Assembly (NCBI GenBank): GCA_963709635.1
Contig: CAVPXA010000025.1
Location: 26,686-90,685, forward strand
Length of the DNA stretch: 64,000 bases
DNA from: an uncultured Thermoleophilia bacterium
Lineage (GTDB): Bacteria > Actinomycetota > Thermoleophilia > UBA2241
Direction of reading: 5' to 3'
Below: the continuation of a report on this DNA, generated by a model with database tools
DNA letters: not shown here

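Follow-up and report, generated by a model that had tools for sequence, protein, structure and literature searches.

An insertion in the 3' part of the tRNA-Sec gene

The window is collinear with L001, a tRNA-Sec locus of 95% nucleotide identity (L numbers denote loci or contigs among the 68 related ones that were fetched), on both sides of a 2.1-kb insert, and the two blastn alignments share 74 nt of L001 in the 3' part of the tRNA. The sequence-only reading had proposed an integrated remnant around selC and expected an empty site in relatives; this was found in L001 and in six more loci (L002, L003, L014, L017, L020 and L057), each of which has only one tRNA-Sec and lacks the FG-GAP insert. 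Among the fetched loci compared, no relative has an FG-GAP gene adjoining selC. We regard the locus as probably the scar of a site-specific integration that has since decayed and no longer holds an integrase. The region between selC and the hydrolase gene is a general hot spot, where relatives carry different secreted-protein genes.

Features of the tRNA-Sec locus (window positions)
Feature	Position	Strand	Remark
tRNA-Sec gene (selC), copy 1, putative attL	23934-24031	+	intact
Direct repeat, copy 1 part	23959-24031	+	73 nt
First marker base, copy 1	23974		C
Second marker, copy 1	23987-23988		GA
Insert	24032-26129		2,098 bp
FG-GAP_2/InlB-B-repeat cargo gene	24307-25971	-	frame broken
P arm	26075-26125		beside copy 2
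3' fragment, copy 2, putative attR	26130-26202	+	73 nt
First marker base, copy 2	26145		A
Second marker, copy 2	26158-26159		AG

The ARAGORN check of both copies that had been suggested from the sequence returned a full tRNA-Sec for copy 1, which folds as a cloverleaf and scores 68.9 bits with Rfam, against 69.4 for the native gene of L001. The GA/AG difference between the copies sits in the unpaired loop of the variable arm, and SelB is encoded within the window; the function of tRNA-Sec is preserved after the insertion. Copy 2 was also called by ARAGORN, but we rejected it as a second tRNA gene, given its Rfam score (33.5 bits, with a gathering threshold of 47) and its non-cloverleaf fold; it has no D arm and carries an A-G mismatch in the anticodon stem. 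Rather than two tRNA-Sec genes, annotation should list one functional selC and an attR pseudo-fragment.

Marker bases and crossover

The two copies form a same-strand direct repeat with 96% identity, and this block, from the 5' strand of the anticodon stem through to the tRNA 3' end, has the extent that characterizes class A sites. Anticodon-centred attP sequences are the commonest class (PMC4383910). All full-length native tRNA-Sec genes read C...AG at the marker positions (18 loci, comprising three ENA contigs and 15 GTDB genomes, plus about 45 metagenome contigs), and the double substitution from AG to GA occurs in the functional tRNA of none of about 65 relatives. Copy 1 of the window reads C...GA and copy 2 A...AG: the regenerated tRNA departs from the native gene in its island-derived part, and the native AG sits in the displaced fragment. 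This pattern is exactly the BOP' / POB' pair that an attB reading C...AG and a putative attP reading A...GA would yield. The crossover would lie within 23975-23986 (cgtctgcggggc) if attP was the source of the A at 26145; otherwise it could lie anywhere within 23959-23986. The assembly is error-prone (about one frame break per 1.6 kb), which makes single-base markers somewhat risky, although dismissing both the GA and the A as errors would require three independent ones.

Displaced 3' fragments that start at the anticodon loop, with non-tRNA DNA upstream, were found in L038, L039, L048 and L055. The identity block of the window begins 7 nt further 5' than in these four and takes in the whole anticodon stem, an observation that counts against the integration model.

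Integrases and element arms at related loci

Tyrosine integrases (PF00589) immediately follow tRNA-Sec in L051, L065 and L019, another adjoins the displaced fragment in L039, and a 71-aa integrase remnant occupies the same position in L018. In intact relatives the tRNA is followed, at 100-165 nt, by the integrase module, whose transcription runs towards the tRNA; the proteins combine a SAM-like N-domain with PF00589. The absence of an integrase noted from the sequence was borne out by Pfam and tblastn, neither of which revealed an integrase, an excisionase or any recognizable piece of these genes, whether in the insert or elsewhere in the 64 kb. No ORF of the insert matched PF00589, no integrase remnant was detected at the insert ends (Pfam at E <= 1; tblastn), and two family integrases searched by tblastn against the whole window gave a best E-value of 0.18. 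Consequently, the involvement of an integrase is deduced from the related loci only. A likeness of 'VVLTTATSH' to an integrase C-terminal motif was discarded, as no score backs it.

The P arm of the window aligns with the arm of L055 at an equal distance from the tRNA fragment (z about 7), and in both TTTGCAGG lies 62-63 nt upstream of CTTCAAAA. Arm sequences were also compared across the family formed by the elements of L019, L039, L051 and L065, for the TTTGCAGG motif and the GGCTGCGGGAGCC block. The P arm, with its TTTGCAGG, is clearly homologous to that of L055, a contig of only 1.4 kb that does not include the integrase of its element; the P' arm expected right after copy 1 is degenerate, and the left arm of the window bears a weak resemblance to the family P' arm. 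The 5' GGAGC of copy 2 had been taken for a retained vestige of the acceptor stem, a view that we abandoned, since this block is also conserved in the L055 element arm.

Cargo gene and searches for a donor

The only cargo gene encodes an N-terminal signal peptide and seven 57-aa FG-GAP_2 (PF14312) units, in a reading frame broken at least 15 times. Repeat regions of proteins from Planctomycetota, Acidobacteriota, Lysobacterales and Chloroflexota share 55-75% identity with these units. With the full stitched protein as query, only repeat-region matches from unrelated phyla were obtained (55-75% identity; 72-85% query coverage, mostly 74%), the C-terminal B-repeat part alone had no matches, and no orthologue sharing the N- and C-terminal parts was found. 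The gene has the seven units and signal peptide of FG-GAP_2 beta-propeller proteins with C-terminal accessory domains but differs from them in its interrupted frame and in having no full-length orthologue. It is best treated as accessory and is probably non-functional.

Neither the GA-variant 41-mer in JGI metagenomes nor the tRNA 3' 38-mer and the anticodon-loop/variable-arm 21-mer in IMG/VR had any match (0 each). The P-arm pattern gave five IMG/VR matches, all due to chance, with no tRNA-like sequence behind them. With the insert as blastn query, none of the 68 fetched loci matched at E < 1e-3, and no other copy of the element, attP form or cargo orthologue was found in the collections searched. 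Composition provided no clear foreign signal in the insert, and a promoter and terminator scan yielded nothing useful.

Integration model and alternatives

We propose that a circular element carried an attP imitating tRNA-Sec from the anticodon stem to the CCA, and that a tyrosine integrase would have recombined it with chromosomal selC, an anticodon-centred class A site. The left end would then hold an intact chimeric tRNA-Sec (attL) with an element-derived 3' part, and the right end the displaced native 3' fragment (attR). A later deletion may have removed the integrase module together with the P' arm site, leaving 2.1 kb with one heavily frame-shifted gene for a secreted FG-GAP/B-repeat protein. 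This remnant is probably immobile. The circle junction of the excised element would read ...ggagccggtccgcggtcttcaaaaAcgtctgcggggcGAtgatcc...gccactgttttggggg...

That the 2.1-kb unit never had an integrase, and was moved in trans as a CIME-like att-flanked mini-element by a tRNA-Sec-specific integrase from another part of the genome or from a co-resident element, appears unlikely. Both att-type ends are present, TTTGCAGG lies in the P arm at an L055-like distance from the fragment, and the cognate integrase family circulates in the clade. Yet on the left side of the insert the motif found after the tRNA in integrase-bearing relatives is degenerate, no collection contains a second copy of the unit, the cargo looks decayed, and L018 demonstrates that integrase erosion does occur at the tRNA-Sec site. 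The denser consensus errors in the insert could reflect lower read coverage, as would arise if only part of the population carried it. A live integrase-less mini-island that rides the tRNA-Sec-specific integrases of the clade, in only part of the population, would explain this poor consensus and, if real, would carry a seven-blade surface protein gene, prone to slippage, from one Thermoleophilia genome to another; we consider it quite unlikely.

An origin without any integrase would involve either local duplication followed by divergence or the entry, by a RecA-dependent single crossover, of a circular or linear foreign fragment that happened to include a selC 3' segment, for instance out of a related strain with the FG-GAP gene beside selC. 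Rare homologous recombination could proceed through the 73 nearly identical nt, one such crossover yields an identical marker pattern, and the hot spot beside selC holds varied secreted-protein genes in relatives. Such an origin is nevertheless very unlikely: the sequence preceding copy 2 shares homology with the L055 element arm, family motif included, and is no selC upstream region; an FG-GAP gene lies beside selC in no relative; and duplication would need the AG to GA change absent from about 65 relatives. It is extremely unlikely that copy 2 and the insert are a chimera of long-read metagenome assembly, despite the many indel errors of the window, densest inside the insert, since a chimera would not give rise to an exact 73-nt duplication whose markers are reciprocally exchanged, to a flank that picks up the empty-site sequence at the very base, or to an arm of the element type.

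Relation to known tRNA-gene islands

A regenerated tRNA gene and a displaced fragment at the island ends are the published definition of tRNA islands (PMC4383910). Islander, the catalogue of tRNA-gene islands and prophages of Hudson, Lau and Williams (2015), requires an integrase (PMC4383910). The window shares with its islands the intact tRNA, the direct-orientation 3' fragment with a block from anticodon arm to 3' end, the empty sites in relatives and the related elements with tyrosine integrases; it departs from them in its 2.1-kb insert without an integrase, its single, apparently broken cargo gene and its uncultured Thermoleophilia host. The selC islands of Enterobacteriaceae include LEE, SHI-2, PAI I-536 and SPI-3. 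In this family selC inserts span 3.4-57 kb (e.g. PMC6174562). The tRNA-Sec target is common to both and the tRNA is likewise kept functional, but the host phylum is unrelated and the integrase lineage of the related loci probably so, and the window insert, tens of times smaller, carries no virulence cargo. CIMEs are cis-mobilisable, ICE-derived elements that have lost their recombination and transfer modules; the window resembles them in having an att-flanked cargo segment without its own integrase, but its left arm looks degenerate, no linked ICE or prophage was seen, and mobilisation in trans is putative.

No new mechanism is implied. The locus is a clean textbook case, complete with an empty site, markers exchanged reciprocally between the copies and integrases at related loci, and it delimits the att site. 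It shows that integration into tRNA-Sec recurs in uncultured soil and sediment Thermoleophilia, making the gene a hot spot there as in enterobacteria.

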